The position numbers and the translations under genes are program-made. Shown in pieces: positions 9,001-28,329 of a stretch of DNA of 31,851 bases (its first letter is position 1; the number at the start of each line of letters is the position of its first letter). The DNA is taken from positions 1-31,851 of the forward strand of contig JAEOSU010000087.1 in the NCBI GenBank assembly GCA_016840165.1, read 5' to 3'. The notes below the pieces were generated by a model, which worked only from the letters and a program-made list of their open reading frames with translations, did no database searches and was not told where the DNA came from. The stretch is from Promethearchaeota archaeon. GTDB taxonomy: Archaea > Asgardarchaeota > Lokiarchaeia > Sigyniarchaeales > SOKP01.

Positions 9001-9683
9001 AGTTTCGATTCTGAGAAGGGAGGGATATGAGCATTAGGCAGAACAGTCTTCAGTCTATTTTTCTTTACCTGATATGCATAATCTGTTCGATAGAGTTTTT
9101 GAAGCTCTAGACGGTGTTTTTGTTTTATCTGATTTAATTTTTGGCGAATAATGGAGGTTTTATTCGGTTCCATCCCCAAATGGGCATCTATTCGACGGCT
9201 TGGAGAGTCTTCTTTTTCATGGGACTCGGAATGAGATAGGGTTACTTCTTGAGGAATTTCTGGGAGATAATTACTGAACCTCTCAGGCTCCTCTTCAAAA
9301 TTAATTTCTTCTGGCTCTTCTTGCCATTTTTCTTTTATGCAGACATAGTTTTTGATTTCTTGCTCCATATTTAAGTAGGTATTTTCAATGTTATATTCTG
9401 CTGGGATTTGGTAAGATTCATTAGCTTTGCAATAAGCACAGGAATTAAGGAACTCAGCTTGTCTACGTGAATAATCTTTAATTTCCTGATCAACCGTAGC
9501 TCGAGCATGGGAAATTATTGGCTCGGAGATATTATAATTAGCTTGGATAAGATACTGGATGGTCAGGTGCGTCTTATAATCCCTAGGTAGATTGGGTTTT
9601 TGAGAGAAATTTTTTCCATTCTTATTTTTTATTTTTTGCTTTTTATTTATTCGAGATTCTATTAAATTTGGATATCTTTCCAT
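1..9683 (-). CDS. Giant multi-pass membrane-anchored surface protein/adhesin, >3227 aa, 3'-partial (charged N-terminus, ~7 TM, split LamG domain, lectin-like repeats, Ig-like domains)
   Basis: Manual translation from ATG at 9683 (MERYPNLIESR...) stays open to the window edge (...LLRIIPSRVDL); AGGTGA SD 7 nt upstream. Hydrophobic helices at ~7885-8610. LamG motifs WALFDENTGSSTYD...GIAFDG, FAITGWVYP, NQWTYIAVRY, FAGKLDEISVFN. Ig-like motifs LPNGYYNLTLLATDSAQN and PSGTYYLKAYLFDKAGN. Many N-x-S/T sequons. Absent from the ORF track because it has no stop inside the window. Confidence 0.93.
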   Translation of the reverse strand, partial: MERYPNLIESRINKKQKIKNKNGKNFSQKPNLPRDYKTHLTIQYLIQANYNISEPIISHARATVDQEIKDYSRRQAEFLNSCAYCKANESYQIPAEYNIENTYLNMEQEIKNYVCIKEKWQEEPEEINFEEEPERFSNYLPEIPQEVTLSHSESHEKEDSPSRRIDAHLGMEPNKTSIIRQKLNQIKQKHRLELQKLYRTDYAYQVKKNRLKTVLPNAHIPPFSESKLQETSQGFSIPKSIKYLLPKTFSEKQKKIPLPYYDMESRIAYEQRLYEEHLTKKHNTSTSTGSKENISHTKLPQHQEHKLPKTKIRKTRKQKLRGKALLLELNRRRRTRQELKSMSFFTHIRFNIGHLKEKLTLWNALQLIFLIGIFFLAGISFYTPLNLAYSMELFLGYQMLILGVHYLSVFAVSRKRDLTIKKDATRSYRKARCIYFIPLGALITTFGLSFLELYWVSLGINVSIIIGSWMLIFTSPSYPKIDKPNRRTLKMIYHLYKFYLLGWSLFGVLLLFSWMALFRPNNLFIPTTITIIVVLLLTIRAPSKVRKLLAMKKALYNKGKTYSRAYRFALEDRNQRASILICIFLVIMPLLFLTNSVMAINCPDLEFAYVSQEQRLSTSSIDLMGLEYYPELSDLEEQLAINDQLLMKSYVSLGFAQTGRFTVEFIPLELAKGIIDFLPHVAYSEFIHGPLEEYELLTEINLNELFLYPGTYKVQVTFSRLIGFSIQTSSPKIYELTIDKDRLTVISNEIFDDTLDGQFYGAVYTFEHPTDNCYSVIFDGQVVNSLQEPYPVDSVDLYLEDYDTYKYITTIHPDALGRFHYTHTVYGSMEKSALAKIEYSGDEKYHPMYYEEFAGLEFHSRYGRFFLDDDHDYYPDWYFTIHDLLELLAASYTPPSSLDFWALFDENTGSSTYDEIHTLEGTLEGNATWTSGKNEYGIAFDGEGVITGGGGGSGTGQDFMVIRGTTIISSGNTEATITEGTDYTLESGQDVSTCFIRITNTRLTGMGRTSGGGNQNNDDFAVRIKNPDNIATSITFERTGTANDDRVTWEILQYTGASGGANEMVVRGVGTATCSGTTATCDGSSLSTIADSDKVVVFITGQKAISTGTGDWWQSLFTAELTGMGPYIPRFTRGKSASSNDGVSYAVVEFIGSNWRDVQRLDISTECTTAWTTSNYNSAYTDISIQSEGGVDLLNYSRAFMHQQFRTDNDATGLDDAGDNVEITSNSQLRIRNSATSGTRYKTCWIIENTQSTGNVMTVEHDWYYKTAGGSEENQWAEDISTVSNIDATSIFAQASMDGAGTALPRGSIDYRLTSTSQITFTESDNGQEKLVTYEVVQWPSEPSGSSEVSYEDFDYVFFGDILDNSWGTNDDTFAITGWVYPTAYNDTSNLHGIKNTFFAKAGSIEIGINESGFLMLYLNTVSVETTATYGFSNVIPLNQWTYIAVRYNESDVDVFLGDTWCRDALGGSIEPWNGGGAIQNGGNLTIGAELTNYTCFAGKLDEISVFNSSITDMQIVNHMGAPIVSLSPGIYKDDGQGGWSLITTSGELQNGYINLVCTAAGNEVVELEMYLSETYPDLQTQTEDDWDLITSYEYDAYSYSFLLDTWELPDNESWYYIVKGTDIDNNTIYEVWDTYFGIDHFKDLINYTYLDVSGKINHHSSIGVDILEGYESHLSSLNLYVNYSNQIDYLKNVTYNDLYSNYWLLTLEEVESWAQSKGLMDAETSIRFVVEANLSYIYGANYYLYNYTLDSITLDLEGPELTLLTNGYTLSLGATYDTIEDNVITMGISSTSNDFAKVELQYKYITPTTADWISYGQFEAEDSLAEIAMDILTFRDDNIALRFIGYDALDNSEILYEGSYWFIKELNNHQLFTIEGLESGSLFGLDSEDMVDLSVKILPVDNDITKVLLTTGYETFSLTNVVSEEDHIYFEDDGIIDDDIKLNSTFYPIFGSKLTFIELRIVLFQGSLGDEYVTEKEVIITVTSQVFNDTVEISDVTYNLTLTQDNIFMSFVNDTDTYSNLHSIPYIVNNAPPLLKLYDDENEFVTSIPLHPNYDILENKTLNEGEGGGGGEGDVFQFEVGSVTLTNNIDQGYSFHISFTYSYTSSVIVGYIYTRNNDEEVSVRFDNVSSTGADVFMAEPPDGAYDYSAGHPSESLTYIVMEAGEWQLPDGTKVKAGTVSTSKCCGKYTNPSTEYETVSFSSSFSATPAVLHSLNTYNNDEFKASCTDNVGSSSFQLSQEDAETSTSITTETIGWIAIESGQTGTISGVKYETLHNQDSDSSGKSNNGHTFSFAQSFTSAPLIVVSQNDRAGGDGGWALSYDGTHTSTQHITCSQEDRTADTEVSHTTERFGFWAIESAISYTNATTGSSAEVEITNNYLIVDVPEPTSGGFCSLESVKINGTLYDFSYFVSNDELLINLLTSKDLDGNYNVSSPIIIEYGVSTAFLPDEQFVASFDFSTISQGNYTFVGEFYDISGSISQFILDAPVEIDLSGPQIYTQFLNNASVNPESGSIAFVISDWSEVDSYQFNTTIEGYWTIDGNLYTFWWNDTSISEGQKHFMLTCNDSLGLESQVSFVLWLDKTLPQISNVQTSSNYWTDLYAINATIGEVCGFSLLVEALHLSSGTTISNLKYSLGKNGNIWTILIDSQGLPNGYYNLTLLATDSAQNVGTYTIANVYLDSSVATLEDIIEELYVDGQNIYNNTINDVLYFNEQEFISIEAFDEIFDDFTWEGINQTLYEQFGIDSLSFYFTNTLSWYNVSILGSLNYDQFTYSLTGFGESSDVSRIRHIHGLSIGNYIIEDFSYILEGTSRVISIDSRYRYALAPALTDQIMIQCYEFVPANKINFQFNTTTNRWQLLSGGNNYFNISEYLNLNESQSFLFWIAAKDGLGNVLYSHDYTGIFDNNMTKNGSDSMFEWHLGTDSSENGILIFGSDVYADSTIAINVSAVEPTMQGLEDVNRIMLYGSEDGNNYDYIGRAYFGGEENLWNYYWDGDALESVPSGTYYLKAYLFDKAGNYLIENHDMMLYDYTQLQLLTDIIFGHIFEFNVTEISNNQTLSGTIENYFSGTSETLWDIIMEYYDPTVNRWVPLVLNSTTIVANGDTANYEITWDISQDLDFLESLFDHDFAYDYLPLPITSPSDSDLWGSWGTFENATHWQPIVIQEASGYLDVSVFEFDGQNGWIIDSQFSTESTIPSESEQVFHIFDINSDNCYELLRIIPSRVDL

Positions 9684-13879: not shown

Positions 13880-15157
13880 TCAAATATATGCCCTATCAGT
13901 AGGGTTTTGGTAATAATCAATAATTTTTTTTTTAATTGAGTCAATAAATTCATATATTTTTTTATATTCAAAAGAATCTTGAATAATGATATCCTTTTTA
14001 TCACCTAAATACTCTTTATGGCTTAGAAATTCTAAGGATTTAGAAAGTCTTCTTCTTTTTCCATTTAATATCATGTTGGGCACAATTATTTCGAACGAAA
14101 AATTTTCTGTTGGGATCTTTACTAAATTTATTTTACATTTTGGATTAAAGATAAAACAAATTACTTCAAGGAGGGATTCTAATTTTCCCCATGTGATAGT
14201 TGTAAAAGGCGCATTATACTTTTCTTGAAAGCGTCTTACATTTAATATATTATATGTACCATCTTTCAAATAACCTAAAGAAAATTTTGGATCTGCTGGA
14301 TTAGAATAATTGTAATTTAGGCAAAAATATATGAGCCCACTAGGATAAATTAACAAATCCTCACCATTTGTTGGCTCATATTGACGTGTATAATCAGGAA
14401 TCTTAACTGTCTGAGATTCCTTAATTATAGAATAATCATCAATATAGTTCTTTATAATATTAGAATTAAAGTCAATTAAATTATCTGAAAGGGAATAAGG
14501 AACGATGCAGCCAAATATATAATCATATATCAAACCATCTCGACTATTTTTATTAATTGGGAGACTAAGATTTTCTTCGAGTTTATTATTAGCCCAACTC
14601 TGGAATTTTTTATATATATCTTCTAACATTTCTGGGCTCAATTCTTCTTTTATTGAAGGTTTACTTAGTTCTAATTCGAGCAGAGGCTTAAGACAATCTC
14701 TCAGAGTTTCTTTTGTGTATTTTTGGATATGCTTGCTTCCAACATCAAAGGGAAGTCTTTTTAGTTGTTCCTCTTCACAAATTACAATTTGTCTTTTCCC
14801 TAATCCAGCAGCATATCCATACTCCCAATAAACATTTAGACTTGGACAATAATCTTCGACTCCATGTTCTTCACAATATGTTTTTAATGGTGCTGATATA
14901 TCGTTTATAATCAATCGAGACCCTCTTACATTTGAGCAAATATTTTCGCAAAAAGCGTCTAGATTATTGTTCTCATCGAGTCTTTCAGCAAATATAGGTT
15001 CCAAATTATATTCTCGAACAAGATTTATAATGATATCTATATATTCTTTCCTACTTGAATCGCAAGATCCTATAATAAACACTTTGTCCTGATCCTCAAA
15101 GAGATCTTTATTACAAGATCTTACCTTAGACCAATAACAAGGTAGATTTTTTGCCAT
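13880..15157 (-). CDS. Nucleoside 2-deoxyribosyltransferase-like (TIR-like) effector domain fused to an unnamed C-terminal domain
   Basis: FIIG...ICSNVRGSRLIINDIS...NVYWEYGYAAGLGK...LPFDV signature with the conserved Glu; C-terminal ~250 aa aligns by eye with the 27112-28329 product. Confidence 0.8.
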   Translation of the reverse strand: MAKNLPCYWSKVRSCNKDLFEDQDKVFIIGSCDSSRKEYIDIIINLVREYNLEPIFAERLDENNNLDAFCENICSNVRGSRLIINDISAPLKTYCEEHGVEDYCPSLNVYWEYGYAAGLGKRQIVICEEEQLKRLPFDVGSKHIQKYTKETLRDCLKPLLELELSKPSIKEELSPEMLEDIYKKFQSWANNKLEENLSLPINKNSRDGLIYDYIFGCIVPYSLSDNLIDFNSNIIKNYIDDYSIIKESQTVKIPDYTRQYEPTNGEDLLIYPSGLIYFCLNYNYSNPADPKFSLGYLKDGTYNILNVRRFQEKYNAPFTTITWGKLESLLEVICFIFNPKCKINLVKIPTENFSFEIIVPNMILNGKRRRLSKSLEFLSHKEYLGDKKDIIIQDSFEYKKIYEFIDSIKKKIIDYYQNPTDRAYI

Positions 15158-15242
15158 TTTTTAATCCTCAAAGGTATATTTAAAATTCATTTTCTTTAAT
15201 ATTTGTTCTATTCTAAATTATTTTTCAAAAGTAATTCTTTTA

Positions 15243-15279
15243 GTCTCCTTCTGCCCATCTGGAAAATGGGTAAGGAGAC
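15243..15279. repeat. GC-rich 14-bp stem-loop with 2-nt bulge
   Basis: GTCTCCT-TC-TGCCCAT-ctggaaa-ATGGGTA-AGGAGAC in an otherwise very AT-rich intergenic region. Confidence 0.6.
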
Positions 15280-15694
15280 ATATTGCTAAAAAATTTTTTT
15301 TAACAATAAAATATATACAGTTCAAAATATTTAAGTCTATTGGTTAATATCATTAAAAATCTTATCGATATTGAGAGTCCGGATTATGGAATCCGAGAAA
15401 ACCTATCTTCCACTGATTAAATTGAACTGGATTTTAACGGGGTGAAATTTAATAGCTTAGCAGACTAAATATAATAGTAAATTTATATTGAGAGCAAACG
15501 GATAAGTCGGTTTAAAAATTGCGCAAAAATCTAATACATTCAAATTAAATGTATAACCCCTAAATTAGATAAAATTGACCACATGATTAAATAATCAGTT
15601 TAGTCACTAATTCTATTTACTCTAAAAAATAAACAAAAGAAAAATATATTGCACCAGTTTTAACGGTAAAATCTGACCCTTGAAATATTCTAGT

Positions 15695-15750
15695 GTTTTT
15701 GTTATTAGCAAAAACGGAAGAATCTTATTAAGATGTAATAAATTACATCT
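15695..15750 (-). terminator. Two tandem inverted repeats immediately downstream of the M50 peptidase gene
   Basis: AGATGTAAT-AA-ATTACATCT (15731-15750) and GTTTTTG-TTATTAG-CAAAAAC (15695-15715); function inferred from position only. Confidence 0.3.
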
Positions 15751-16594
15751 ATTTTTTTAGGAAAGTTAAATTAGGATAAATTTTATCAAAAAAAGTATTA
15801 CTTAATTTAATAATTTTAGCTGTAAAACCGATGATTATAAAAAATAAAGCAAGGAAGAAGATAAAATTACAGATTAACGATAAGATTGCAGGTGTAGCCC
15901 ATTGAGTGCAAGTTAGAAAGTCCCATGCATCTCCGTTCCGTATAATTATACTATTCCTCCAATAATTTATTTCTTTGAAAATAATATAGCTAGTCAAAAA
16001 ATAATGAGGACTCAATAACTCTATTTTCAAATTCGCATATTTAAAAAGATAAATTAAGAATAAGATTGCGATAATTATAGTTCCTAAACTTCCGGCTACT
16101 ACTATTCTACAATATATAGAGTTTGGGATATTTGAAATAAATCTAGTGTAACCATTCCCGAAGTTCGTAATATTTATTTCAATTAGTTCGACTCCATAAA
16201 AGATGCAGGTTAAAGCATGATTTGCTTCATGAATAAATGTAAAAACATACAAATATGGAAAGTATAATAAAACAGTTGATCCAAGAAGTATCGCAAACTT
16301 GATAATGAAAATATCTTCATACTTCCATACTTTTTTCTGCGTCTCACCTATCTGTATTTTAATATTAGTTCCATACTGGTTCCTGATATTGCTATAATAA
16401 CTAATTTTTAGTGAAATTGTTCTGTTTACAACAAAAGTAATGTACACTATCACTATAAACATAAAAATCACAGTTAGAAACTGTCCAATTGCTACATAAT
16501 AATTCAAAATAAATAAAGTATAAATTAAAGCACATAGTGTGATGCCATACAAAAAGAATTTTAGCTTTATCTGATTGATACTAATGATTGCCAC
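15749..16594 (-). CDS. M50-family (site-2 protease-like/M50B) intramembrane metallopeptidase
   Basis: FIHEANHAL (HExxH), AGSLG and NGDAWD motifs; multiple TM helices. Confidence 0.85.
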   Translation of the reverse strand: MAIISINQIKLKFFLYGITLCALIYTLFILNYYVAIGQFLTVIFMFIVIVYITFVVNRTISLKISYYSNIRNQYGTNIKIQIGETQKKVWKYEDIFIIKFAILLGSTVLLYFPYLYVFTFIHEANHALTCIFYGVELIEINITNFGNGYTRFISNIPNSIYCRIVVAGSLGTIIIAILFLIYLFKYANLKIELLSPHYFLTSYIIFKEINYWRNSIIIRNGDAWDFLTCTQWATPAILSLICNFIFFLALFFIIIGFTAKIIKLSNTFFDKIYPNLTFLKK

Positions 16595-17019
16595 CTATCT
16601 TCTTTCCTGATTTTTGAACTATATATATTTAATAGTTTATTTGTATTTAAGTTTTTAGTTTATAGGCAGTGTTTTTAAGATAATAAGACAGATCTAAGAT
16701 AATATATTACTTATTATGTTGAACTCTTAAGATATAAGGTTATTTTAATGAGTATTCTTAATGCTTAGAGTTGACTTCCTTAACATTACTTTAATATGGA
16801 GAACCAAGATAATTGCTTCCAACCGCGGTTAAGAGTTCCCGAAGTCCCGATCATCTCATCATGGATCCATTATTTCAAGAGTTCATGCATCTGAATCTCA
16901 TCATTAGTGACTTTTACGGTGCGATACAAAGGGTCTTTTCGATTGGAGCTATAATCCAAAAAATACACCCATATTTGGGATATAATCCCGTTTCTTCACT
17001 AATGTACCCCTTGATCTAA

Positions 17020-18549
17020 TTAGAAAAAGAGATTTAAAATAGTAAGAGAGTGTTTTCCAATTATTTTTCCGACTTCAGCTAGATATTTTCGCCTTTTTAT
17101 TTCTTTCTTTTTATATTGCTGATGAAACAACTTTAATTTCTGATAATCGCTTCCCAATTTTTCTTCTAGTTGTAATCTTAGTTGATCTAATTTTGCATTT
17201 ACATCATTATCATGTTTCTCTAATAAATCGAAAATTTTTCTAAGTAAATCAGGTTCATATTCATAGAATATAGATTCTCCCTCGTGCCTGAATTTTTCTT
17301 CGGATACTATTTTTTTCTTAACTAAATATCTGGTTTTTTTAAACTCGTTTTCTATCAAGTCAATAAGGTCTTGTTCATTCTGGCTACCTATAATATATAT
17401 CTCATTTACCTTATTGAAAGCAATACAACATACCAAAGATTCTGTAACGATTAGATTGGTTATAATACTTTCTATATTTGAGTGATAAAGCAAAATTAGA
17501 ATTGATTTTTCTTCAATAGGGATAGAATATCGATACCAACTAGAAATAATGACATGATATTCAATATTATTAATCACATGATTAAAAATAGAATAAAAAT
17601 CTGTAGATTCCTCTAAAAAAGAAAAGTTGGAAAGTCTATCAAAGATTTCATTTACCCATATATAATTTTTGAGAAGATAATTTGCACCCTTCAAAACAAA
17701 ATTCCATAATTGTTCTTTTAGATTTGGATTATATATGTTTCTCCCAATTATGTTGGGATGAGACAATAAACTTGAAGTGTCGTTTGATACGATAATTTTA
17801 AATGGCTCTTCGATATGTTCATAACCAGATAACAATAAATCTACACCAACATACTCGCTAAAATTATCTCTATTTTTAGTATAATCAAATCTCTTGAGAA
17901 AACTCTTATAACTCTTCTTAAATGAGGGAAATTTAATATGTGAAAGAGAAGGATTCTCTAGATTTTTGATAATATTGTTAGGGAAATTAATTACATCAAA
18001 ATATAATCCTAAATCATTTCCTTTAGATGAAATCCATTCTGTTTCCAGAGCTATCCCTGTTCGCATTAATATTTGTTGAATACTAGTTTCAGATAGTTCC
18101 CCAAAAATTAATTTATATAACCGGCCAAATTTATCACTATCAAATAAATAAATTGGTGTTCCATAAAATTGTTCGAGGTATAAACTTAAATTATTTATAT
18201 TTTTGTCTGACAATTTTCTAATGTTGTTACCTAAAAATTGCTGTATTTCCTTATGATATTTTGCCATCAACCTTTCAGAAATTCTTTTATATGCCAAAGT
18301 TTCAAATAGATCCTCATTTAATAGATCGAAAATATTTATGAAATTAGTCCAAATATCTTCAAATTCAGTATGATTCATATTGAACAAGATCTCCATGTTC
18401 CTCCTTACATCAAGCTTAAGATTATTCATTGTATAATGATTTTTTCTGTAAGCAATTATTCCAGTCTGCCGAAATTCTGAAAAAAAGACTAAATATAGAT
18501 ATTTAGGATCAGCTGGGATTAGTTCAATGAATTTGCGTGATATGTCCAT
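17020..18549 (-). CDS. Hypothetical protein, 509 aa, with coiled/amphipathic C-terminal tail
   Basis: Long ORF with normal composition; no motif recognised; co-oriented 151 bp downstream of the TIR-SMC gene. Confidence 0.8.
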   Translation of the reverse strand: MDISRKFIELIPADPKYLYLVFFSEFRQTGIIAYRKNHYTMNNLKLDVRRNMEILFNMNHTEFEDIWTNFINIFDLLNEDLFETLAYKRISERLMAKYHKEIQQFLGNNIRKLSDKNINNLSLYLEQFYGTPIYLFDSDKFGRLYKLIFGELSETSIQQILMRTGIALETEWISSKGNDLGLYFDVINFPNNIIKNLENPSLSHIKFPSFKKSYKSFLKRFDYTKNRDNFSEYVGVDLLLSGYEHIEEPFKIIVSNDTSSLLSHPNIIGRNIYNPNLKEQLWNFVLKGANYLLKNYIWVNEIFDRLSNFSFLEESTDFYSIFNHVINNIEYHVIISSWYRYSIPIEEKSILILLYHSNIESIITNLIVTESLVCCIAFNKVNEIYIIGSQNEQDLIDLIENEFKKTRYLVKKKIVSEEKFRHEGESIFYEYEPDLLRKIFDLLEKHDNDVNAKLDQLRLQLEEKLGSDYQKLKLFHQQYKKKEIKRRKYLAEVGKIIGKHSLTILNLFF

Positions 18550-18700
18550 TTAAAATCTTCTTTGGATTTTTAATGTCTTTAGATTTAAAATAATAATCAT
18601 GATATTTAAATATAATATTCGGGAAAAGAAATTCTTATCAATATCTCCAATCTCTTTTTAGTCTATGGCTATTATTCCGGAAATTATCCAATCCACCGAT

Positions 18701-20263
18701 TTATATTCTTCTAGGACCCCTTAATACTAACCCACATTGAGAGCATACTGATTCATATCCTCCTGTGTTTATAGTTAGTATAAAACCGCCACACTCTGGA
18801 CATGTTGGTTCGGTTAATATATCTATTGGATATATGTTTGTAATTCCATTATTTCCCTTTCTCGTTCTAAATACCATATTTGAGGAAAGTATCATCTCTT
18901 CTCGATGACCGACAATTATTACTTGCGATGTACGAGATATTTTTTTCAACAATTTACTAACTATAGCTACATGTAAAGAATCTAAATTCTCATCTATATT
19001 ATCAAAAAGATAAAAAGAAAGAGGAAAACATAATATCGAGGCGAAATATAATAATAGAAAAACATAACTTTTTTCGCTCCCACTTAAATAGTCAAATTCA
19101 ATAAATTCTCCTTCACTCATTTTTACCTTTATAAGTAAATTAGCAATAGAGAGGTTTTCAGGATTTTCTACAGATATATCTATTGAATTTATTGTTTCGT
19201 CTTCATCGCATAATCTTTGTAGCTCTCCGATAAATTTGGGTAACACTATTTTCAAAAAATTGGGATTCCATGTATTTTCTATTTTATTCCAAGATTTTAA
19301 TAGTTGTCCAATAATCTTTAATCTCTCCTGGGGGGAGCGGGATATAAATTCATTTTCATCATTATCCACAAGAATAAATCTTTTAGATGTGTCTTTATTG
19401 ATGGTTGTTAATTCTATTACTTTCTTATAATCAACTAAAGATGTTGGAATTCCATTTACTAATTCCATATTTTCCTGATTATTTTTTATTATTCTATGTA
19501 AATAGAAAAATGGATAATACGGGAATTTTTCTTTGTTATTATCGAACTTTACTATTACTTCTGCTTGCGGGACGACATTAGAATCTGTACTTATGTAAAG
19601 TAGATTTTTATAATTAGTGAAATATTTTTCATTTCTATAATCTAATACCATTAATACCGCTTTAATGATATTGGATTTTCCAGATCCTAATGGGCCAATA
19701 ATTAAGTTAAGATTTGGGGACAGGTTTAAGTTTATTTTATTAGGGCCAAATGAGGCAAATCCTGAAAATATAATTTCTTTTATGTAATAATCATATTCTT
19801 GTTTAATGTTTGGCTTAAGTGATCTTAGGTCACCAATTTTCTGGACATTGTCTAGTTCTGTGTCTACGGACTTATATTTCCTCATTATTAGTTGAAATAA
19901 ATCATAGCTAAACTGTTTAATATCATTCTCTTTAAATTTTATCCCAAGTTTAGTAGTTAATAAAGTAGGAATAGAGTTCTCATTAATAAAAACAGGAATT
20001 ATTTTCTTTTGCAGTTTTAAAGCAGCCATCCATTCCATCCTAACCGGTCTTGATTCATCTGCATTTTCAGAACAAAATAGAATTAAAATATCGCATTTCC
20101 TTAAATTTTCATTCATATATTCATAGATATCATCATACATATCACGTTCCCAATATAATACATCTCCAATCTGCGAGAAATCACCCAATAAGCCGCAGAT
20201 CATTGGAATTTGAAATAATTGAGAATCTTTTGTAGAATAGCTTATATATACTACTATACTCAA
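18701..20263 (-). CDS. TIR domain - SMC-head-like ABC ATPase (no long coiled coil) - TFIIB-type Zn ribbon fusion
   Basis: TIR: VYISYSTKD, CDILILFCS, VRMEWMAAL, IIPVF. ABC: GFASF, GPLGSGKSN, LSGSEKS, FYLFDNIDENLD, IIVGHREEM. Zn ribbon: CPECGG...ESVCSQCGLVL. Confidence 0.9.
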   Translation of the reverse strand: MSIVVYISYSTKDSQLFQIPMICGLLGDFSQIGDVLYWERDMYDDIYEYMNENLRKCDILILFCSENADESRPVRMEWMAALKLQKKIIPVFINENSIPTLLTTKLGIKFKENDIKQFSYDLFQLIMRKYKSVDTELDNVQKIGDLRSLKPNIKQEYDYYIKEIIFSGFASFGPNKINLNLSPNLNLIIGPLGSGKSNIIKAVLMVLDYRNEKYFTNYKNLLYISTDSNVVPQAEVIVKFDNNKEKFPYYPFFYLHRIIKNNQENMELVNGIPTSLVDYKKVIELTTINKDTSKRFILVDNDENEFISRSPQERLKIIGQLLKSWNKIENTWNPNFLKIVLPKFIGELQRLCDEDETINSIDISVENPENLSIANLLIKVKMSEGEFIEFDYLSGSEKSYVFLLLYFASILCFPLSFYLFDNIDENLDSLHVAIVSKLLKKISRTSQVIIVGHREEMILSSNMVFRTRKGNNGITNIYPIDILTEPTCPECGGFILTINTGGYESVCSQCGLVLRGPRRI

Positions 20264-20600
20264 TTTTATAAAACCCCTAATGAATGATAGATTCCTTGTG
20301 TTTATTATTTATAACATTTTTATAAAAATTTAAATACTTAAATTTTAGCGTTCCCATAACCATTCGTATCTATCCTTTCCTTTAGCTCCAAATAATATTG
20401 GTTTTTTCCATATTAGGAACGATTATTGAAATTATATTTGGATAAAAAAACTATAATACTAAAAATGCAGGTTTAAAATAGTATAAATTCACTATAATTT
20501 AAGCATTAATTAATTCAAAGATCTTGATATAGTAGCCAAGATTAAGAAGTATGAAAAGGTTAACAATAAATTCTTAACATAATTGTATTATTAATTATTT

Positions 20601-20816
20601 ATGGAAATAAAAATTAAAGAAATTTTAATTAAATTTAAGACTGAAATCTTGGCTGTTATTTTTCTAGGGATATTAATGTTAGTGATTGCTGCATATATAC
20701 CAGATGAGTATGTTAAAAGTGTTTTAATATCTCTTGGTACCTTTCTTATAATGTCTCCCGCTTTGCTAATTTTATTATTTTATGCTATGAATCAAATATT
20801 AAAGTTGAGTAGATAA
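20601..20816 (+). CDS. Small two-TM membrane protein
   Basis: 71 aa with two hydrophobic helices. Confidence 0.6.
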   Translation: MEIKIKEILIKFKTEILAVIFLGILMLVIAAYIPDEYVKSVLISLGTFLIMSPALLILLFYAMNQILKLSR

Positions 20817-20894
20817 ATGACGGCTTAAGATTGGATTTTACTACTAACTATAGTTTTTTTTTGAGTTGTAACTGTATCATTAATAATTACAATT

Positions 20895-21740
20895 CTATTT
20901 GCTGGATAAAATTAATAATTTTAGAGGATTTCTCCAACGAATAGATTTCGAGAAGCTTAAATGAACCTCATTGAGTATGTGATACTCTTCCGGTAGTTTT
21001 TTTAATTCTTTAATAGCTCTTGTCTCTCCCACTGCCCCACTCATGTATTGCGGATTTTTTTTAAGTACGATATTAGCTGTATGTAAATCCTTGACCGATT
21101 TTTGGACGGATTTTTCTAAGTTCTTTTCGCGCGATTTGACTTCTTTATCGGTTTTTTTCACTTGTTTAAGTTCTTTTTTGAAGGGTTTATCTAGTTTCTT
21201 CTCCAAAATCTTATCAATTTTTTTCACTCGTTTTTCATCTTTAGAGCTCATTTCCCCCTCTTCAAGCTGCTTTTTTTCTTCAAGAAGGGCTTCTTTAAAT
21301 AATACTTTCTTCTCCTCGATCTTTTGGACAAGCTTCTCCTCATCTGTTTTTAATGCTTCAATAATCGCAGTCAGCTTATCACGTTCTTCTTGGGTGCTGG
21401 TAGCTAAGATCGTTTTAAAATTCTTTTTAAAGGTTTGGATCTCTTCAAAGGTTTCGAATCCATTAATCCCTTTATGAAGAAGTTCTCTCTTAATATGCAT
21501 AACACTTCCTGAGCGACCAATGATATTCTCATTGGAAGGTTTCAGAATTAAGTGGTTTTTTTCCACAAACCATCGAGCAATATCAAATTGTTGGGTGCTG
21601 TTTGAAGCTGATTGAAAATCTGAAGTAAAGACTGATTTAGGAACCCACGATTCCCTTCCATTAGTAAACGAAATTAATACTGCTTTTTCGGTCTCCTTGA
21701 TGATTTGCCCTTGGAGTGTCGATATGGGTTTGGGGGGCAT
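20895..21740 (-). pseudogene. C-terminally truncated NERD nuclease-domain protein
   Basis: N-terminal ETEKAVLI...WVPKS beta domain and long coiled coil, then the NERD start GAVGETRAIKELKKLPEEYHILNEVHL. The ORF ends before the QIDH...IETK catalytic motifs. Confidence 0.65.
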
Positions 21741-21920
21741 TTTTTCTGGTGATCGTTATCTTTTGATCTTTTGATTGATTGAGAATCGATTTAAAATCGA
21801 TTAAATAATTAATTAATTAGTTAGTAGATCTTTCTCTTAATAACTCTTTTTAGTTTCAAGAGTAAATTTAATAAGATTGAAACAACCTATTTTTTATTAT
21901 AAAATATGGGTGAGATAAAG

Positions 21921-22391
21921 ATGAAAAGAAATATTTTATTGGGAGCTATTTTACTATTGTTGCTTTTTCTATTTCCTGCGATCAATGTCCAAGCCGCCGA
22001 AAAGACCGAATATTTATCCAATGGTCAATGGACTCAGATTAACTTAACACTTCCCCAGGGTTTTAATCTTAATTGGGAATTTGAGACATACAACAACTCC
22101 TTTCCAGCATTAGTGAGGATAGATGACCCTGATGGTTATTACGAAAATTTAATCACTGCCGAAAGTGGGAGTGGGGTGTACATTGCAGAGAAACAAGGAG
22201 CCTACATTATTACTCTCTTGAATGCTGGGTCAGTTGGCGGTTACATTCGTTTTACGTACAATGAACCCCTCCCTGTTATTTCAGGGTATCTGCCGCTATT
22301 AATGTGTGGCTATATTATTTTTTATCTATTATTTGGATGTATTGGAATATTGTTTGCAATCAAGAAAAAAACAAACATAGTTATATTATAA
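21921..22391 (+). CDS. Secreted GOLD-like beta-sandwich protein with Loki-CTERM-like membrane anchor
   Basis: GGTGA SD before ATG 21921; signal peptide MKRNILLGAILLLLLFLFPAINVQA; GAYIITLLN strand; ISGY + TM + KKK tail. Confidence 0.75.
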   Translation: MKRNILLGAILLLLLFLFPAINVQAAEKTEYLSNGQWTQINLTLPQGFNLNWEFETYNNSFPALVRIDDPDGYYENLITAESGSGVYIAEKQGAYIITLLNAGSVGGYIRFTYNEPLPVISGYLPLLMCGYIIFYLLFGCIGILFAIKKKTNIVIL

Positions 22392-22435
22392 AATAGTTAA
22401 ATCACTTCGTTAGAATGTTAAAATAAATATTTTAG

Positions 22436-24244
22436 GTGATTTCCATAATAAGGACAAGAGCACATGAGCTTGAAACTCTATCTAAAGCTTTTTTATTACG
22501 TTTCTTTTTTAAATGGATTTGTAATGAATATAATCCTGATTATGGACTTGATTATAAGATAACAATTGTAAGGAATGGAGAAGAAACTAAGGATTTCTTT
22601 TTTGTACAGCTTAAAGCAACGGATCATATTGATATTAAGGAAGAGGAAATTAACTTTGTATTAGATGTGAAACATATACTTTTTTTTAAAGAAATGCCAA
22701 TTCCTATTTTGCTAATTTTATATGATGTACAAAATGATTGTGGTTATTGGTTAAATATTCAGAGATATTACAAAGATGTATTAATCCATGAGGAAGAGGA
22801 TTGGAGTAAGCAAAAGACAAAAACACTAAAAATTCCATTAGATAATAAGTTAGTAGACCTAAAAGATATTGAAGAAATGATAATAATCTCATCTAAAGAA
22901 TTGTATCGAAGTATAACGTTTGGATATGAATGGTTTGAAGGTTATGAGAAATTAATTGAGAGTCCTGAAGAGTTAGATAAAATTATAGCAAAGTACGAGT
23001 CAGATTTTATCGAATCAAATGTCTATGCTTCTTTAGTGAATTTTAGAGCAGGAAATATGGAAAAAACTCGGGAGAATTTACTGAGTGTATACAATCAAAA
23101 AAAAGAAGATATAAGGCATCTACAAATTATCCTATCAATAACTTTATTTGATCTACCAATAATAGCAATTAATCCCTCTGAATTTACGAGACTTCTCCGT
23201 GAGGGTCTTGGACTAGCAATTAGATTAGAAGAAAAATTATTTGAAACCATGTTTAGATTTTATATTATTTATTCGAAACTTTTCGAATTATTATTAGCAA
23301 AAATGCCATTAACCCTGCAAAAAATATATATTGCCGAAGGAAAGAGTGTTGTTGATCCTTTTGTTCAACTTATCTGGGATAGTGAAGACTTATACTTAAC
23401 GGGGTTACTAAAGAATATATATGATACAATCTCTCAAATATTAAAAGAGACCATTGAAAATGGGAATATAATAGAATATATTGAGATGCAATTATGTGTA
23501 ATTTTCTTAGATAACTTTGTATCCAATCTAATTAGAAGTAGTACTAAAAAAGTAATAGAAAAAGATCAAAAGCAAGTAGATTTTATAAATCAACTTTTAG
23601 AATTAATTGAAAAAATTAATAACATTGATCTTTCACTTCAAGCATATCTAATAATTGGAAATTTTTTCGAACAAATCGATTTAGAAAATTGTTTATCCTT
23701 ATATAATAGAGGATTAGAGCTAGCTAAACAACAGGAGCATAGATATTATTTAGATAAATTTAATGAAAATATTAGAGAAGCAGGTAGAGCTATAGAAATT
23801 CCTACTCTAGAAGAACAGAGAGAAGAAATACGAAATTTACCATTGAAGTCATTTATTGAACTTCAAGAAATGAAATATAAGGGATTAGATTCATTAGAAG
23901 ATGAAAAGTTGAAGAAACTCTTGAAATTTGCTCAAAAACAAATGTATGTGTTAGATATTTTAAAATATTGCGAATATTTGAACATTTGTTATTTTCCATC
24001 TGTCTATGGACAAACTTATGGCATTTTCTCATTAGGAGTTAAAGAGATCGCATGTTTGGCTAAGGAGAAAATCTATAGCTCTGCAGATCTTATGAGTACA
24101 ATAGAACAATTTAAAAATAATTTTTGTGAAAAATGTGATTTACGAAAAGCTCGGGAAGAAAATTTTGATCCTCCAACTAAAATTTTAGATGAAATGTGCG
24201 AAAATATAGCTAAAATGAAAAGGAAAAATTCACCTAAAGTATAA
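22436..24244 (+). CDS. DUF4365 (PD-(D/E)XK) nuclease domain fused to helical/TPR-like region and Cys-rich C-terminus
   Basis: PDYGLDYKI, FFVQLKAT, PILLILYD...YWLNIQ DUF4365 signature; QAYLIIGNFFE...YNRGLELA TPR-like segment; C-terminal C..C..C..CEKC. Confidence 0.85.
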   Translation: MISIIRTRAHELETLSKAFLLRFFFKWICNEYNPDYGLDYKITIVRNGEETKDFFFVQLKATDHIDIKEEEINFVLDVKHILFFKEMPIPILLILYDVQNDCGYWLNIQRYYKDVLIHEEEDWSKQKTKTLKIPLDNKLVDLKDIEEMIIISSKELYRSITFGYEWFEGYEKLIESPEELDKIIAKYESDFIESNVYASLVNFRAGNMEKTRENLLSVYNQKKEDIRHLQIILSITLFDLPIIAINPSEFTRLLREGLGLAIRLEEKLFETMFRFYIIYSKLFELLLAKMPLTLQKIYIAEGKSVVDPFVQLIWDSEDLYLTGLLKNIYDTISQILKETIENGNIIEYIEMQLCVIFLDNFVSNLIRSSTKKVIEKDQKQVDFINQLLELIEKINNIDLSLQAYLIIGNFFEQIDLENCLSLYNRGLELAKQQEHRYYLDKFNENIREAGRAIEIPTLEEQREEIRNLPLKSFIELQEMKYKGLDSLEDEKLKKLLKFAQKQMYVLDILKYCEYLNICYFPSVYGQTYGIFSLGVKEIACLAKEKIYSSADLMSTIEQFKNNFCEKCDLRKAREENFDPPTKILDEMCENIAKMKRKNSPKV

Positions 24245-24829
24245 TGTTTCTTTTAATTTTAAAGAAAAAGTATGGAAACAAGTATAAATCGCTATTTGAG
24301 ATTCATGAACTTAGTCGGCCTATTTTGGGCTTCTCTTGGTAGTATTTAAGATCAAACCAAACGCTGGTATTATGGGTAAGAGTTATGAAACCTTGTTTTA
24401 AAGGAGAAATTTTTCCCCTTACCAAAAATTACTTAGATATCGAACCGCAGAGATTTATAAACTCATAGGTGAATTCATATTCTATCCCAATTAGACAAAA
24501 TGCGTGATGACCCATCTATTTTACTCCTAACTCTATTGCTTATACCATAGTTCACGCCGATTGTCGGGAGCCCATCTCTTTCTCGAACCTCTTCTTAATA
24601 GCATTTGTGCCATCTCCTTCTTGGAAGTAAGCTCCGTTCTTACTTCCTACTTCTAATCTCTTTATTAGAGATAAAGCCATACTAGAATAAAAGCGTGAAG
24701 CATGAATCCGATATAGTTCAGGAGGTTCGCAAGGCACATCCCTAAAAAGACCCATAGACCAATCCCAGCTAAATCTAACTTATCCATAGTTGTAAATTAC
24801 TACTTATTGTTTAAAAAGAAAAAAAAAAC

Positions 24830-24974
24830 TGATTCCTGTCAAGGCGACCTATCGGGGTGGAGGTCATAAAAAATGGTTAAAAAAAGGGGCGTAGATTGGT
24901 AGAGGAGGACCAATCACTTATACAAAACAAGCCAAATATGGAAAGGATTTCAATTATGAAGATGACAGGAATCA
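24830..24974 (-). ncRNA. Structured fold-back element A (candidate ncRNA or ssDNA recombination site)
   Basis: 12-bp perfect terminal inverted repeat TGATTCCTGTCA/TGACAGGAATCA; internal hairpins GACCT/AGGTC (24846-24865) and GATTGGT/ACCAATC (24894-24915); followed on the minus strand by a long T tract (24813-24828). Confidence 0.55.
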
Positions 24975-25114
24975 TTACTCTTATAATATTGTGGATCTAT
25001 TTAGACAAAAAACAAAAGACAAAAAAAATATTAATTAAATTATGTTATTCTTTATTAAGGGCTTACGCTACTACTTTTTTAAGAGATCAATTATCTGGTA
25101 AAATGGTGTTTATT

Positions 25115-26095
25115 ATGGAAGAGAAGCATATGAAAGAGAAGCACATATGCATTTACACTTATCAATTTTTATTAAATGTTCAAAGTATTTTGAAGAATAT
25201 CGAGATTGTATTGGTTTATTCCAGAAAAGGATTCGAAAAATATGAAGATACATTTAATTCGTTTGTAAAATGTATTGAAGAAGGAAATTTGGATTCTTAT
25301 ATGAAGAATATAAAAGCGCGTAAAGAAGGTATAAAAGCTAGTGATTTGGAATTAAGTGAGATCGAACGATTGATCGCAGATCCTGATAAGGGTTTTCATG
25401 CAAAAGAAATGTTAAGAGATATGGAAAATTTAATTGAGATTTTTAAAGATATCAACTATGCAAAATTAAAAGAGTTCTTGTTTAGGAGTAATATAATTTA
25501 TCTTTTCACAGAATTCGAAAATTTTCTATTTAAATGTATGAAATTTATTTTGTTGAAGTATTCTGAGATAATGGATCAGAAGTCAATACGATTAAAAGAA
25601 ATTAGGTTAATGCACGATAGTAGAAATCTTAAATTAATAGAGGAAATAATTGCAGAAAATACTATTCAAGATTTACTTTACAAAAATTATATCGACATCT
25701 TTAATTATTTTAAAGACCCGCTTGGAATAGAATTACAATTTAGCCAAGAGTCTATAGACAAGCTGAATATCTTTAAAGAAATTCGAAACTTTCTTACTCA
25801 TGGAGATGGAATTATAAATTTATTATTCCTAAAGAGAATTTCAAATTGGAATTTTGATAAATATGATTTAAAGCTTACCAATTTAAAAATTGGTGAAAAA
25901 CTAATTGTAGGCCAGCAAACAATATTTAATCTATTTAGGTTATTAAATAGTTTTATTATTGAAATAGATAGAGTGATGGATAAAAAGTTTCCTGAATTAA
26001 GATTTGAAATCGAAAGTGCAGCCCATTTATTCCATCAGGCATATTTAGACCTTATAATTAGTAAATGGAAAAATGTTCTTGAAAAATTAGAATAA
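25115..26095 (+). CDS. HEPN-domain putative RNase
   Basis: IIYLFTEFENFL and IRNFLTHGDG (RxxxxH). The likely start is ATG 25115 behind a GGTG SD rather than the track's TTG 24896, which lies inside element A. Confidence 0.8.
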   Translation: MEEKHMKEKHICIYTYQFLLNVQSILKNIEIVLVYSRKGFEKYEDTFNSFVKCIEEGNLDSYMKNIKARKEGIKASDLELSEIERLIADPDKGFHAKEMLRDMENLIEIFKDINYAKLKEFLFRSNIIYLFTEFENFLFKCMKFILLKYSEIMDQKSIRLKEIRLMHDSRNLKLIEEIIAENTIQDLLYKNYIDIFNYFKDPLGIELQFSQESIDKLNIFKEIRNFLTHGDGIINLLFLKRISNWNFDKYDLKLTNLKIGEKLIVGQQTIFNLFRLLNSFIIEIDRVMDKKFPELRFEIESAAHLFHQAYLDLIISKWKNVLEKLE

Positions 26096-26209
26096 AGTTA
26101 TTGAACATAAATTAGACTCTTTTTCTTCCTTAATTTCTAGATTGGATGAATTATTTCGTAGTAATATGTAATAATCCATAAATTAAATAGAAAGACTTAT
26201 AGTATAGGA

Positions 26210-26332
26210 GATTCCTGCCACCAAGACCTCAATACAAGGTCCGCAATAAAATAGGGGGAGTAGGGCGAAATCAGGACTCTGAGCCGATCAGAGCCACCAA
26301 AAGACAAAAATCCAGGGCGGCAGCAGGAATCA
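26210..26332 (-). ncRNA. Structured fold-back element B, same architecture as element A
   Basis: GATTCCTGC/GCAGGAATC terminal stem (13 bp with two G-U pairs on the minus strand); hairpins GACCT/AGGTC (26225-26241) and CTCTGA/TCAGAG (26277-26293). Confidence 0.55.
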
Positions 26333-26575
26333 TGGTTGATGGTATCCCTATTTTATTTTGAATTATGGGGTTAAGAAGTACAATTTTTTTGTCTTAGGTA
26401 GTCTAATAGCCACTTACCCTAATAAATCTTTTGGCGATACAAGTTCATCAGTAGGAATGTAGAAATTGAAAAACTTAAAAAGAGTATATTAATATTATCA
26501 ACGTAAAAATCCTTTAATTTAAGATTTAAAAGTCTCAATCATATTAAATCAATTTATAAGAGTGAGGCGAGAAGA

Positions 26576-26866
26576 GTGGGAGAGAGTTTGTGGGGAAAAT
26601 TTGGGTTAATGTTAGCTATTATAGGTCTTATGTTTGTCGTTATCAACTTTTTTATGGTAGTACTCAGTAGTTTTTTACCAGATATGGCAAACATGCTCAT
26701 TATTACAGGATTTATCGCATCAATCGGTGCAATTATACTGGGAATTGTAGGTATCATAAGCGATGATTTAAGGGAAAATGCGATTCGAGCAGTAATAGCA
26801 GGAATTATCTTTTTTATTGTTCATATTCTAATACTTGTTGTTCGCGAGTATTTCATAAATCTTTAG
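26576..26866 (+). CDS. Small three-TM membrane protein
   Basis: GAGG SD + GTG; three hydrophobic helices, IILGIVGI motif. Confidence 0.75.
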   Translation: MGESLWGKFGLMLAIIGLMFVVINFFMVVLSSFLPDMANMLIITGFIASIGAIILGIVGIISDDLRENAIRAVIAGIIFFIVHILILVVREYFINL

Positions 26867-27111
26867 CTATATGAACACATTTTTTTATTTTTTGTTTAAT
26901 CAATATTAAAAAAAGTACTCAACGTGGATCATAGAATTTGTAAAAAAAATTTATTAATATGTATTTCTGTATCTAGCAAAAGTAAAAATCCGATAACCAT
27001 GCAAGAAAAATTAAAATGGAACGCAATTGGCTTAGCCAGAAGAACACGATTACTTAGTAGTTCTTACATTAATTTAAGGAATATTTATTTTTAAGAAGGT
27101 TGAGAATTAGA

Positions 27112-28329
27112 ATGTCATTAAACCAAGATGAGAAGGATTATATTTCAAAGATATTCAATCATGGAGTAGCACATCTTTCTGATGATGCTATCCCTAATCG
27201 CATAATCTGTGTCCATAATATCCATTGGTGTATAGAAAATTTACTTCGTAAGGCGTCTCAAGAATGGACAAATATTGATTATAGGGCAGGATTTGAAGAT
27301 ATATTAAATATTTTTGACAGTAGGCATAACATTCCTATAGACTTAAAAAATGAAATGCGAAGGTTAAATACAATTAGAAATGATATGGAGCATAGATCTT
27401 TATTCCATGATATTAGAGACATCTTAAATTTAATACCTAAGGCAAGAGAGTTTATTTCTTGGATAGCTAAAATAAAATTTAATACCATCATTGATTTGTA
27501 TTCAGTTTCAGCAGCGGACGAATCAAATATTATAACCGATTTTAATAATTGGAAAAGAATGAAGATAGAACAATTCGATATCAATAATTTTGAGAATTTG
27601 ATTTTTATTCTTATAATCCCAACTACTTATTCTCCCAATATCATCGAAATGCATATTGATGGAATTAATGAAATGGTAGGATCAACCCTTGAATCAGGTG
27701 TTAGGATTTCTGGCAGAAATCCTGAGCATGAATCCGCAATTGAAAAATATTTTCGAAGTTTTAGACATATATTTAGCCATCCTTCTCAAGTTTTTTCAAT
27801 CCCTACATATATGCGTTATTATAATGAAATTGGAGATGAATTACGAGTATTTCCCGATGGTAGGATTTATATAGCGTTTAAATTTGGAATGACAGTTAGG
27901 GATGAGTTGGGATTTAATATAGAGAATTTATATTCTGGTAGGGAGGTATTTAATATTAATTCACAGTATATAACCTATTATAATCTACCTTTTAATGAAT
28001 ATAGACCAAATATGCTTGAGTATATATTAAAGCTTGTGCTTTACAGTTTTCACCCGGACAATATTCATTCTGGTGTTAAAGCTCTTACAAAATTTCATCG
28101 AATTTTTATTACTTTGCCTTTCATGAGAAGAAATGGAGAGCCATGCAAATTAGATCGCCATTTAGATGATGACCATTGGTTTGAATCTCCACGAATTTAT
28201 TGTGGAGAGGAAGAGGAGTTAACTTTCAAAAGATCAATTAATTTTGATGAGATTCAGGGCGTTTTAGAAGAGTTTAAAAATTGGACATATTCATTTTTCC
28301 GAAATCCTCATGATACTGGATTTATGTGA
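27112..28329 (+). CDS. N-terminal HEPN-like domain fused to the same unnamed C-terminal domain as 13880-15157
   Basis: HWCIENLLRK and LNTIRNDMEH (RxxxxH); C-terminal homology seen by manual alignment. Start is ATG 27112 or TTG 27100. Confidence 0.8.
   Translation: MSLNQDEKDYISKIFNHGVAHLSDDAIPNRIICVHNIHWCIENLLRKASQEWTNIDYRAGFEDILNIFDSRHNIPIDLKNEMRRLNTIRNDMEHRSLFHDIRDILNLIPKAREFISWIAKIKFNTIIDLYSVSAADESNIITDFNNWKRMKIEQFDINNFENLIFILIIPTTYSPNIIEMHIDGINEMVGSTLESGVRISGRNPEHESAIEKYFRSFRHIFSHPSQVFSIPTYMRYYNEIGDELRVFPDGRIYIAFKFGMTVRDELGFNIENLYSGREVFNINSQYITYYNLPFNEYRPNMLEYILKLVLYSFHPDNIHSGVKALTKFHRIFITLPFMRRNGEPCKLDRHLDDDHWFESPRIYCGEEEELTFKRSINFDEIQGVLEEFKNWTYSFFRNPHDTGFM

Follow-up and report, generated by a model that had tools for sequence, protein, structure and literature searches.

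Unrelated toxin-like heads on a shared C-terminal domain: candidate single-chain defence proteins in a Promethearchaeota archaeon

The 31,851-bp window analysed here is an entire contig (JAEOSU010000087.1) from the 3.6-Mb genome of a Promethearchaeota archaeon, and it encodes two proteins of about 400 residues in which one and the same type of C-terminal domain follows two different N-terminal 'heads'. Gene 1 (13880..15157, minus strand; protein P0001, 425 residues), the open reading frame (ORF) of which has the same start as its full-length homologue P0010, combines a TIR/NDT-like domain (residues 1–169; 14651..15157, minus strand) with the first copy of the shared domain (residues 170–425; 13883..14650, minus strand). 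Gene 2 (27112..28329, plus strand; P0022, 405 residues) combines a HEPN domain (residues 1–130; 27112..27501, plus strand) with the second copy (residues 131–405; 27502..28326, plus strand); every homologue aligns from the ATG at 27112, and none from the upstream TTG at 27100, which would yield 409 residues. The genome contains exactly these two copies of the shared domain, hereafter referred to as the 'C-domain'.

The C-domains of genes 1 and 2 are homologous. Comparison by BLASTP, alignment with MAFFT and a Smith-Waterman shuffle test (1000 shuffles) gave (i) a BLASTP alignment with E = 4e-15 and 25% identity over 183 residues, colinear through the last residue of both proteins, (ii) a shuffle z-score of 24.9 for the whole C-terminal parts, with 0 of the 1000 shuffles scoring as high, and (iii) a z-score of 25.8 for the last ~180 residues. 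The preceding ~75–95 residues of the C-domain are matched more weakly (z = 4.1; 4 of 1000 shuffles as high), and the N-termini are unrelated (z = -0.3). The original prediction, made from the sequence of the window, had proposed just such a colinear relationship reaching the last residues of both proteins, with unrelated N-termini; its alignment proves significant, and the MAFFT alignment recovers all nine of its matching blocks in colinear order. As delimited by an alignment of 19 sequences (~255–275 residues), the domain extends slightly further on its N-side than estimated at the time.

The head of gene 1 bears a remote resemblance to two Pfam families. The profile of PF10137 (CAP12-PCTIR_TIR) is covered almost entirely in P0001, P0010, P0043, P0077, P0082 and P0091, with E-values of 0.001–0.009 and scores of 16.5–19.5 bits that are all below the cut-off of 24.7, and P0080 matches PF05014 (Nuc_deoxyrib_tr) with an E-value of 8.9e-5 and 23 bits against a cut-off of 28.8. 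The motif NVxxExGxAxGxGK, including its glutamate, is conserved in P0001, P0010 and P0043; in gene 1 it reads NVYWEYGYAAGLGK (residues 108–121; 14795..14836, minus strand), with Glu112 as the putative catalytic residue, and aligns at a non-significant E-value of 0.26 to the active-site stretch of the DNPH1/Rcl N-glycosidases. We label the head 'TIR/NDT-like', a designation that is taken from sequence resemblance and is not meant to establish membership of either Pfam family. What stands of the earlier assignment as an NDT-like N-glycosidase with an intact glutamate is thus the conserved motif and the TIR/NDT-like resemblance, whereas the family scores stay beneath the Pfam cut-offs.

Heads of the gene 1 type, with 43–67% identity, also precede C-terminal regions of at least four other kinds, 213–299 residues long (P0069–P0093). 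In profile–profile comparison these four regions match the C-domain with probabilities of at most 5% and show no similarity to one another, and the four representatives scanned have no Pfam match. Each of these regions could represent another sensor-type domain, as yet without a name, in Asgard metagenomes.

The N-terminus of gene 2 is, as judged from its motif and its predicted fold, a HEPN domain. The sequence RNDMEH (27376..27393, plus strand) represents the Rx4H motif of HEPN proteins (R89, N90 and H94 of P0022), and all 15 of the 15 HEPN homologues keep the R, N and H of the corresponding RN[DGN]xxH (RNxxxH) motif. The AlphaFold model of the full-length protein (predicted local distance difference test, pLDDT, 86.7; predicted template-modelling score, pTM, 0.81) exhibits a helical bundle at residues 1–126, for which the best structural matches are 5yep_B (Z-score 12.8; root-mean-square deviation, r.m.s.d., 2.5, 117 aligned residues) and 2hsb_A (Z-score 12.7); about a dozen further HEPN proteins follow at Z-scores of 9–11, and the matches below the top two include HEPN toxins, the sacsin HEPN domain, the HEPN domain of AbiA, and Csm6. 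Helical bundles generally score high, as the tool itself warns; the top rows for gene 2 are nevertheless almost all HEPN proteins. Curated sequence models are nearly blind to this head: it has no Pfam match and nothing significant in a profile search of the PDB, the sole match being PADLOC CARF_HEPN with an E-value of 0.0019. The HEPN assignment made originally is supported.

The C-domain itself has no match in Pfam, PADLOC or NCBIfam, and a profile search of PDB sequences returned nothing at E ≤ 10. When the whole proteins were compared with PADLOC-DB v2, gene 1 matched 0 families and gene 2 gave only the weak match in its HEPN part. The AlphaFold model of the C-domain (pLDDT 87.2; pTM 0.87) consists of a long N-terminal helix followed by two βαβ4-like halves. 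Its invariant polar residues are S55, Q80, Y145 and N249, while K23, R200 and K240 are near-invariant (domain numbering). The nearest solved folds are S-adenosylmethionine decarboxylases (AdoMetDC; Foldseek E 6e-4, template-modelling (TM) score 0.31; VIA Z-score 6.4, r.m.s.d. 4.0 over 122 residues), and TBP (TM ~0.2–0.3) as well as Bet v1-like proteins appear further down the list, with all of these matches to solved folds ranking below the noise line of the tool (Z-score 8). The C-domain thus resembles AdoMetDC- and TBP-like sandwiches in its arrangement of two βαβ4 repeats; there is no sequence similarity, and the resemblance is one of arrangement which carries no functional inference. A viral fold library contained nothing like the C-domain at E ≤ 0.001, and a scan of viral contigs revealed no relative. 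APAZ is a partner domain of short Argonautes that is also found fused to TIR, SIR2, DUF4365 and Schlafen domains; identity of the C-domain with APAZ was considered and set aside, with no Argonaute or APAZ structure among the fold matches and no pAgo gene nearby.

Predicted models from bacteria come closer. Feature-based searches of the ESM Atlas returned either nothing or unnamed clusters scoring at most 0.85, and predicted models of bacterial cluster representatives from the Atlas attain TM scores of 0.54–0.65 to the C-domain over 178–203 aligned residues. The N-termini in these bacterial clusters match SLFN_AlbA_2, DUF4062, SEFIR/TIR_2, TIR_2, PNP_UDP_1 or nothing, and no Pfam family covers their C-terminal part. 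This is the same kind of effector set as that seen in the archaea, a coincidence of partners that chance is unlikely to produce, although the comparison is a single one, between predicted models and without sequence support. The earlier description of the C-domain as undescribed needs to be qualified along these lines: database searches support it, but similar folds are predicted in bacteria, and one class of fusions may already have been catalogued (PMC13056530; see below). The literature searched contains no paper which names the C-domain or remarks on its being shared by several types of heads, and no characterised family with these fusions was encountered.

The C-domain defines a small protein family. 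An exhaustive HMMER search with a 19-row profile against 1.84 billion representatives retrieved 43 clusters at a threshold of E ≤ 0.001, 22 of them at 1e-30 or better, while a word-seeded search retrieved close relatives only. The named records derive from Promethearchaeota or from an 'uncultured archaeon' of marine sediment. Among 400 Promethearchaeota genomes surveyed, three carry the domain (1 of the 41 other genomes of the genus; 2 of the 134 of the family), and the genome studied here is the only one surveyed with two copies; a related-locus search with a narrower C-domain alignment arrived at two genomes. Grouping of the N-termini combined with domain scans distinguishes five classes of heads: HEPN-like (21 proteins), SLFN_AlbA_2 (18), Ser/Thr protein kinase (Pkinase; 5 proteins from two lineages), TIR/NDT-like (4), and a retron-St85-effector-like class comprising P0044, the head of which is matched by NF038232 (E 1.5e-10, residues 20–87), and P0052, which was grouped with P0044 by N-terminal similarity alone and the head of which (residues 1–140) has no NCBIfam match. 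A few short forms exist besides these classes, and the three that were examined do not represent a separate architecture. NF038232 at first seemed to reach ~110 residues into the C-domain of P0044, which would have made the C-terminus of the retron effector a relative of the C-domain; when the two halves of P0044 were scanned apart, the match was confined to the head and none was obtained in the C-domain, so that this relationship was rejected. NF038232 detects nothing in the host genome or in the control genomes.

Catalytic motifs are largely intact across the family. In addition to the HEPN motif and the glutamate motif described above, Ex4ExK is kept in 14 of the 18 SLFN forms, and the HRD (HRDLKPQN) and DFG motifs of protein kinases are present in two of the kinase forms. 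The remaining four SLFN forms have no Ex4ExK within their first 180 residues, and at least P0013 and P0042 among them match the Pfam profile only from position 20 or later.

The heads have been exchanged repeatedly, and in part recently. This follows from a quick maximum-likelihood tree of 50 C-domains (IQ-TREE; the order of its deep branches is unsure), on which (i) the head labels require 16 changes where 5 would be the minimum, (ii) one clade, supported by a Shimodaira–Hasegawa-like approximate likelihood ratio test (SH-aLRT) value of 99, mixes 15 SLFN, 3 TIR-like and 1 kinase form with C-domains that are 53–68% identical, and (iii) the P0052 form groups, with good support, with a kinase form as its sister. 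The diversity of effectors that had been anticipated for the homologues thus extends to SLFN, kinase and retron-St85-effector-like heads beyond HEPN and TIR/NDT-like ones, all interleaved on the tree. The C-domains of genes 1 and 2 belong to different clades and are 53–68% identical to foreign relatives as compared with 25% to each other, which indicates that the two copies were acquired separately and are not the product of a recent duplication. The word 'system' in the original prediction therefore says too much: genes 1 and 2 come from different clades and each stands on its own, rather than forming a pair that acts jointly. Within head classes, the mean identity of the C-domain is somewhat lower than that of the head (63 versus 67%, 43 versus 52% and 39 versus 49%); this slightly faster divergence fits a sensor under some diversifying pressure, the difference being small.

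Several members of the family are split or truncated. In locus L007 (7491–8774, on a 175-kb contig of an uncultured archaeon), a TIR/NDT-like form is broken by a stop after residue 93, so that a 93-residue ORF, 82% identical to residues 1–93 of gene 1, is followed by a separate 319-residue ORF with the remainder. In L017 (588–1850), a HEPN head (137 residues; hhalign probability of 100% to the HEPN alignment) and a C-domain (280 residues) are adjacent ORFs, separated by a TAA located exactly at the domain border with the next ATG 7 nt further on, which may be a naturally occurring two-gene arrangement or else the result of a nonsense mutation. Finally, L016 (3345–4619) contains a 55-residue SLFN_AlbA_2 remnant 186 nt upstream of a 306-residue C-domain ORF, that is, a decayed Schlafen-headed copy.

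Between genes 1 and 2, the window encodes further proteins with defence-type features. The protein at 18701..20263 (minus strand) combines a TIR_2 domain (Pfam E 2e-11) with an SMC/ABC-type ATPase head (SMC_N, E 6.5e-37) and a TFIIB-type Zn ribbon, and matches PADLOC mad3 (E 7e-32) and, more weakly, GajA and PtuA; downstream of it, on the same strand, lies a gene for 509 residues (17020–18549) with no match in any library. The gene at 22436..24244 (plus strand) codes for a 602-residue DUF4365 (restriction-endonuclease-like) protein (Pfam E 1.5e-19; PADLOC matches) that shares 35% identity, from end to end, with the product of the gene located directly upstream of an SLFN/C-domain gene in another Promethearchaeota genome. 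These two ~600-residue DUF4365 proteins (22436–24244; L008:5336–7132) each comprise a nuclease-like head and ~460 residues without a Pfam match, and in each genome the gene lies a short way upstream of one that encodes the C-domain, which could mean that both sites are the same defence hotspot or that the two genes are functionally linked. The window also encodes another HEPN-like protein (weak match) and a TPR protein. The stretch from 13.0 to 30.4 kb has a guanine-plus-cytosine (GC) content of 28.8% compared with 31.6% for the genome, which places it at the 2nd percentile of genome windows of the same size (17.4 kb); neither tRNA genes nor an integrase were detected in the window. At the opposite end of the contig, a giant ORF (3–9683) of more than 3,227 residues runs off the contig end, its sole Pfam match being a weak one to an H-type lectin (E 0.0056).

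At other C-domain loci, the neighbours include (i) an AAA_15/AAA_21 ATPase with an HNH protein, (ii) DndB, PAPS reductase, DUF3800, PLDc_2 and HEPN proteins, (iii) a second Schlafen protein, (iv) DUF4365 with SIR2-TPR, (v) LRR-TIR, and (vi) an N6/N4 methylase with an OLD-like ATPase-TOPRIM protein. Most C-domain loci with several kb of context thus contain defence-type genes, a qualitative judgement made by eye with several of the loci being short, and the association with defence genes envisaged at the outset is in this sense found. No neighbouring gene is conserved across the C-domain loci, so that the C-domain genes look autonomous and single. There are no cyclase or CD-NTase genes in the window or at the homologous loci, and no CRISPR genes nearby.

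Taken together, we lean towards the view that genes 1 and 2 are independent members of a small and patchy family of Promethearchaeota proteins which unite a toxic head and the C-domain in a single chain, and which probably serve in defence of the abortive-infection type. The C-domain would then be a constant regulatory or sensing module that keeps the head inactive until a cue of infection appears, be it a viral protein, a nucleic acid or a small molecule, and upon meeting this cue would release or assemble the head, i.e., a HEPN ribonuclease (RNase), a Schlafen-type RNase, a TIR/NDT-like N-glycosidase or NADase, a Ser/Thr kinase or a retron-St85-effector-like protein. In favour of this view are the homology of the C-domains, the exchange of heads on the C-domain and of C-terminal regions behind the TIR-like head, the kept catalytic motifs, the lack of a conserved neighbour, the rarity of the family, the defence-type genes at most longer loci, the low GC content of the island, the slightly faster divergence of the C-domain, the split at the domain border in L017 and the similar heads of the bacterial fold-mates. 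TIR, HEPN, Schlafen and kinase effectors are switched on elsewhere by trigger-induced assembly or release, and published single-chain systems of the same build, namely Slfn with an Ig-like sensor and DUF4062 with AUX or another C-terminal domain, operate in this manner.

Several points weigh against this view. The defence-type character of the neighbourhoods was assigned by eye and with no matched controls, from loci several of which are short; the architecture of the proteins is the one ground for the sensing or oligomerising role proposed originally for the C-domain; the TIR/NDT-like assignment stays under curated cut-offs; the bacterial fold-mates are linked to the C-domain by a single comparison, between predicted models whose sequences show no detectable similarity; and several family members being broken genes, some copies may be in decay.

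It is tempting to speculate further, albeit tentatively and with more doubt than conviction, that the C-domain represents the Asgard branch of a large unnamed superfamily of sensors with a TBP/AdoMetDC-like α+β sandwich fold, spread over bacteria and archaea and joined to at least eight classes of effectors (HEPN, Schlafen, TIR, SEFIR, DUF4062/NIR, PNP, kinase and retron-type NDT). Since such a superfamily would lack a dedicated signal synthase, a conserved infection-derived cue, for example a nucleotide-type metabolite, would have to be read directly. If this were true, a new counterpart of SAVED, CARF and STING would have come to light.

Instead of being an allosteric switch, the C-domain might be a module for binding or targeting nucleic acids that brings the different enzymes to one cellular or viral substrate, for instance tRNA, the ribosome or the genome of a virus. 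TBP and proteins of TBP-like fold do occur among its weak fold matches, and the HEPN and SLFN heads, being RNases, would gain from an RNA-binding partner domain. We nonetheless consider this unlikely: those matches all fall below the noise line (best Z-score 6.4; TM ~0.2–0.3 to TBP), a nucleic-acid substrate common to all heads is improbable given that small molecules or proteins are the targets of TIR/NDT-like and kinase heads, and intact toxins that are constitutively targeted would be lethal in the absence of regulation.

Slightly less probable still is that the proteins serve selfish or addiction elements as their toxin modules, with the C-domain acting as an antitoxin-like inhibitor in cis or as a stabilising scaffold and no virus being sensed at all. 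HEPN proteins, like the retron St85 effector, belong to the classical toxins, and a family that is rare and patchy, often present as broken copies and in our window located on an AT-rich island would be in keeping with such elements. A covalently fused inhibitor, however, cannot give rise to the usual post-segregational killing; moreover, no integrase, tRNA or mobile-element hallmark adjoins the genes in the window, a scan of viral contigs found no family member, and the neighbours are mostly of defence type and not plasmid or provirus backbones.

Finally, a regulator outside any conflict (e.g., of stress-induced dormancy or metabolic signalling) with defence genes nearby by chance, for which one could invoke the ~30% of prokaryotic Schlafen genes that are not near known defence genes (PMC13056530) and the kinase fusions, which could equally mean signalling, appears very improbable, since a domain carried by 3 of 400 Promethearchaeota genomes is a poor candidate for core physiology and five toxic heads on one domain form the pattern of a conflict system.

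Proteins that combine sensor and effector in one chain feature prominently in prokaryotic immunity, and their sensor domains are for the most part uncharacterised. The present family offers a compact and confidently modelled candidate for a sensor, associated with five heads that have their motifs intact, in the Asgard archaea, the prokaryotes most closely related to eukaryotes, with possible structural relatives behind bacterial TIR, SEFIR, NIR, PNP and Schlafen heads. If the C-domain is a trigger-binding switch, it would constitute a new class of sensors and account for a class of Schlafen fusions, and the natural head-swapped chimeras would help to dissect how one sensor activates unrelated effectors. 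If it is not, the family would still illustrate clearly how domains are shuffled within a defence island of an archaeon.

Comparison with known systems places these proteins among several modular architectures. Avs and NLR-like STAND proteins likewise have an N-terminal effector that can be swapped (nucleases, TIR, SIR2 and others); genes 1 and 2 differ from them in having neither an NTPase nor a repeat sensor, and in being only ~400 residues long with a compact α+β C-domain. The effectors of CBASS, Pycsar and type III CRISPR systems (TIR-SAVED, TIR-STING/Cap12, PycTIR and the CARF-HEPN protein Csm6) likewise combine a constant sensor with interchangeable TIR, HEPN or other heads. The Cap12/PycTIR Pfam family is the one nearest to the head of gene 1, and Csm6 is among the HEPN fold matches of gene 2. 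SAVED, CARF, STING and cNMP-binding domains give no Pfam or PADLOC match with the C-domain and are absent from its fold matches, which does not exclude them, and unlike in those systems there are no cyclase, CD-NTase or CRISPR genes nearby.

A likeness is also seen with Evangelion (DUF4062 with AUX) and Vesta VstA (NIR with an uncharacterised C-terminal domain), in which a small TIR-like NADase head is linked to a C-terminal region that defence requires; in these small DUF4062/NIR proteins the uncharacterised C-terminal regions are either required for defence or proposed to bind a ligand (bioRxiv 10.64898/2026.06.25.731849, 10.64898/2026.09.04.749371). The predicted C-terminal fold of a bacterial DUF4062 cluster resembles the Asgard C-domain (TM 0.57). 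The Asgard family differs in that no DUF4062 head was found in it, and the phosphatase partner gene of Vesta has no equivalent at genes 1 and 2.

Of particular relevance is the published work on bacterial Schlafens (PMC13056530; Nat Microbiol 2026), in which the Ig-like C-domain of pSlfn5 was identified as the phage sensor that sets specificity, and in which TBP-like domains make up 1.5% among prokaryotic Slfn fusions, a class left untested there. The SLFN_AlbA_2 heads of the Asgard family mostly keep Ex4ExK and are followed by a ~255-residue α+β domain with weak TBP/AdoMetDC-like matches, and the bacterial SLFN cluster has the same predicted C-terminal fold (TM 0.61). The TBP-like class and the C-domain could be compared by description only, so that their identity is unproven. 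With 18 proteins, the SLFN-headed form is among the commonest of the Asgard family. Genes 1 and 2 themselves, which carry no Slfn head, belong to what the archaeal family adds to the bacterial catalogue: a C-domain also joined to HEPN, TIR/NDT-like, kinase and retron-St85-effector-like heads, none of which features in that study.

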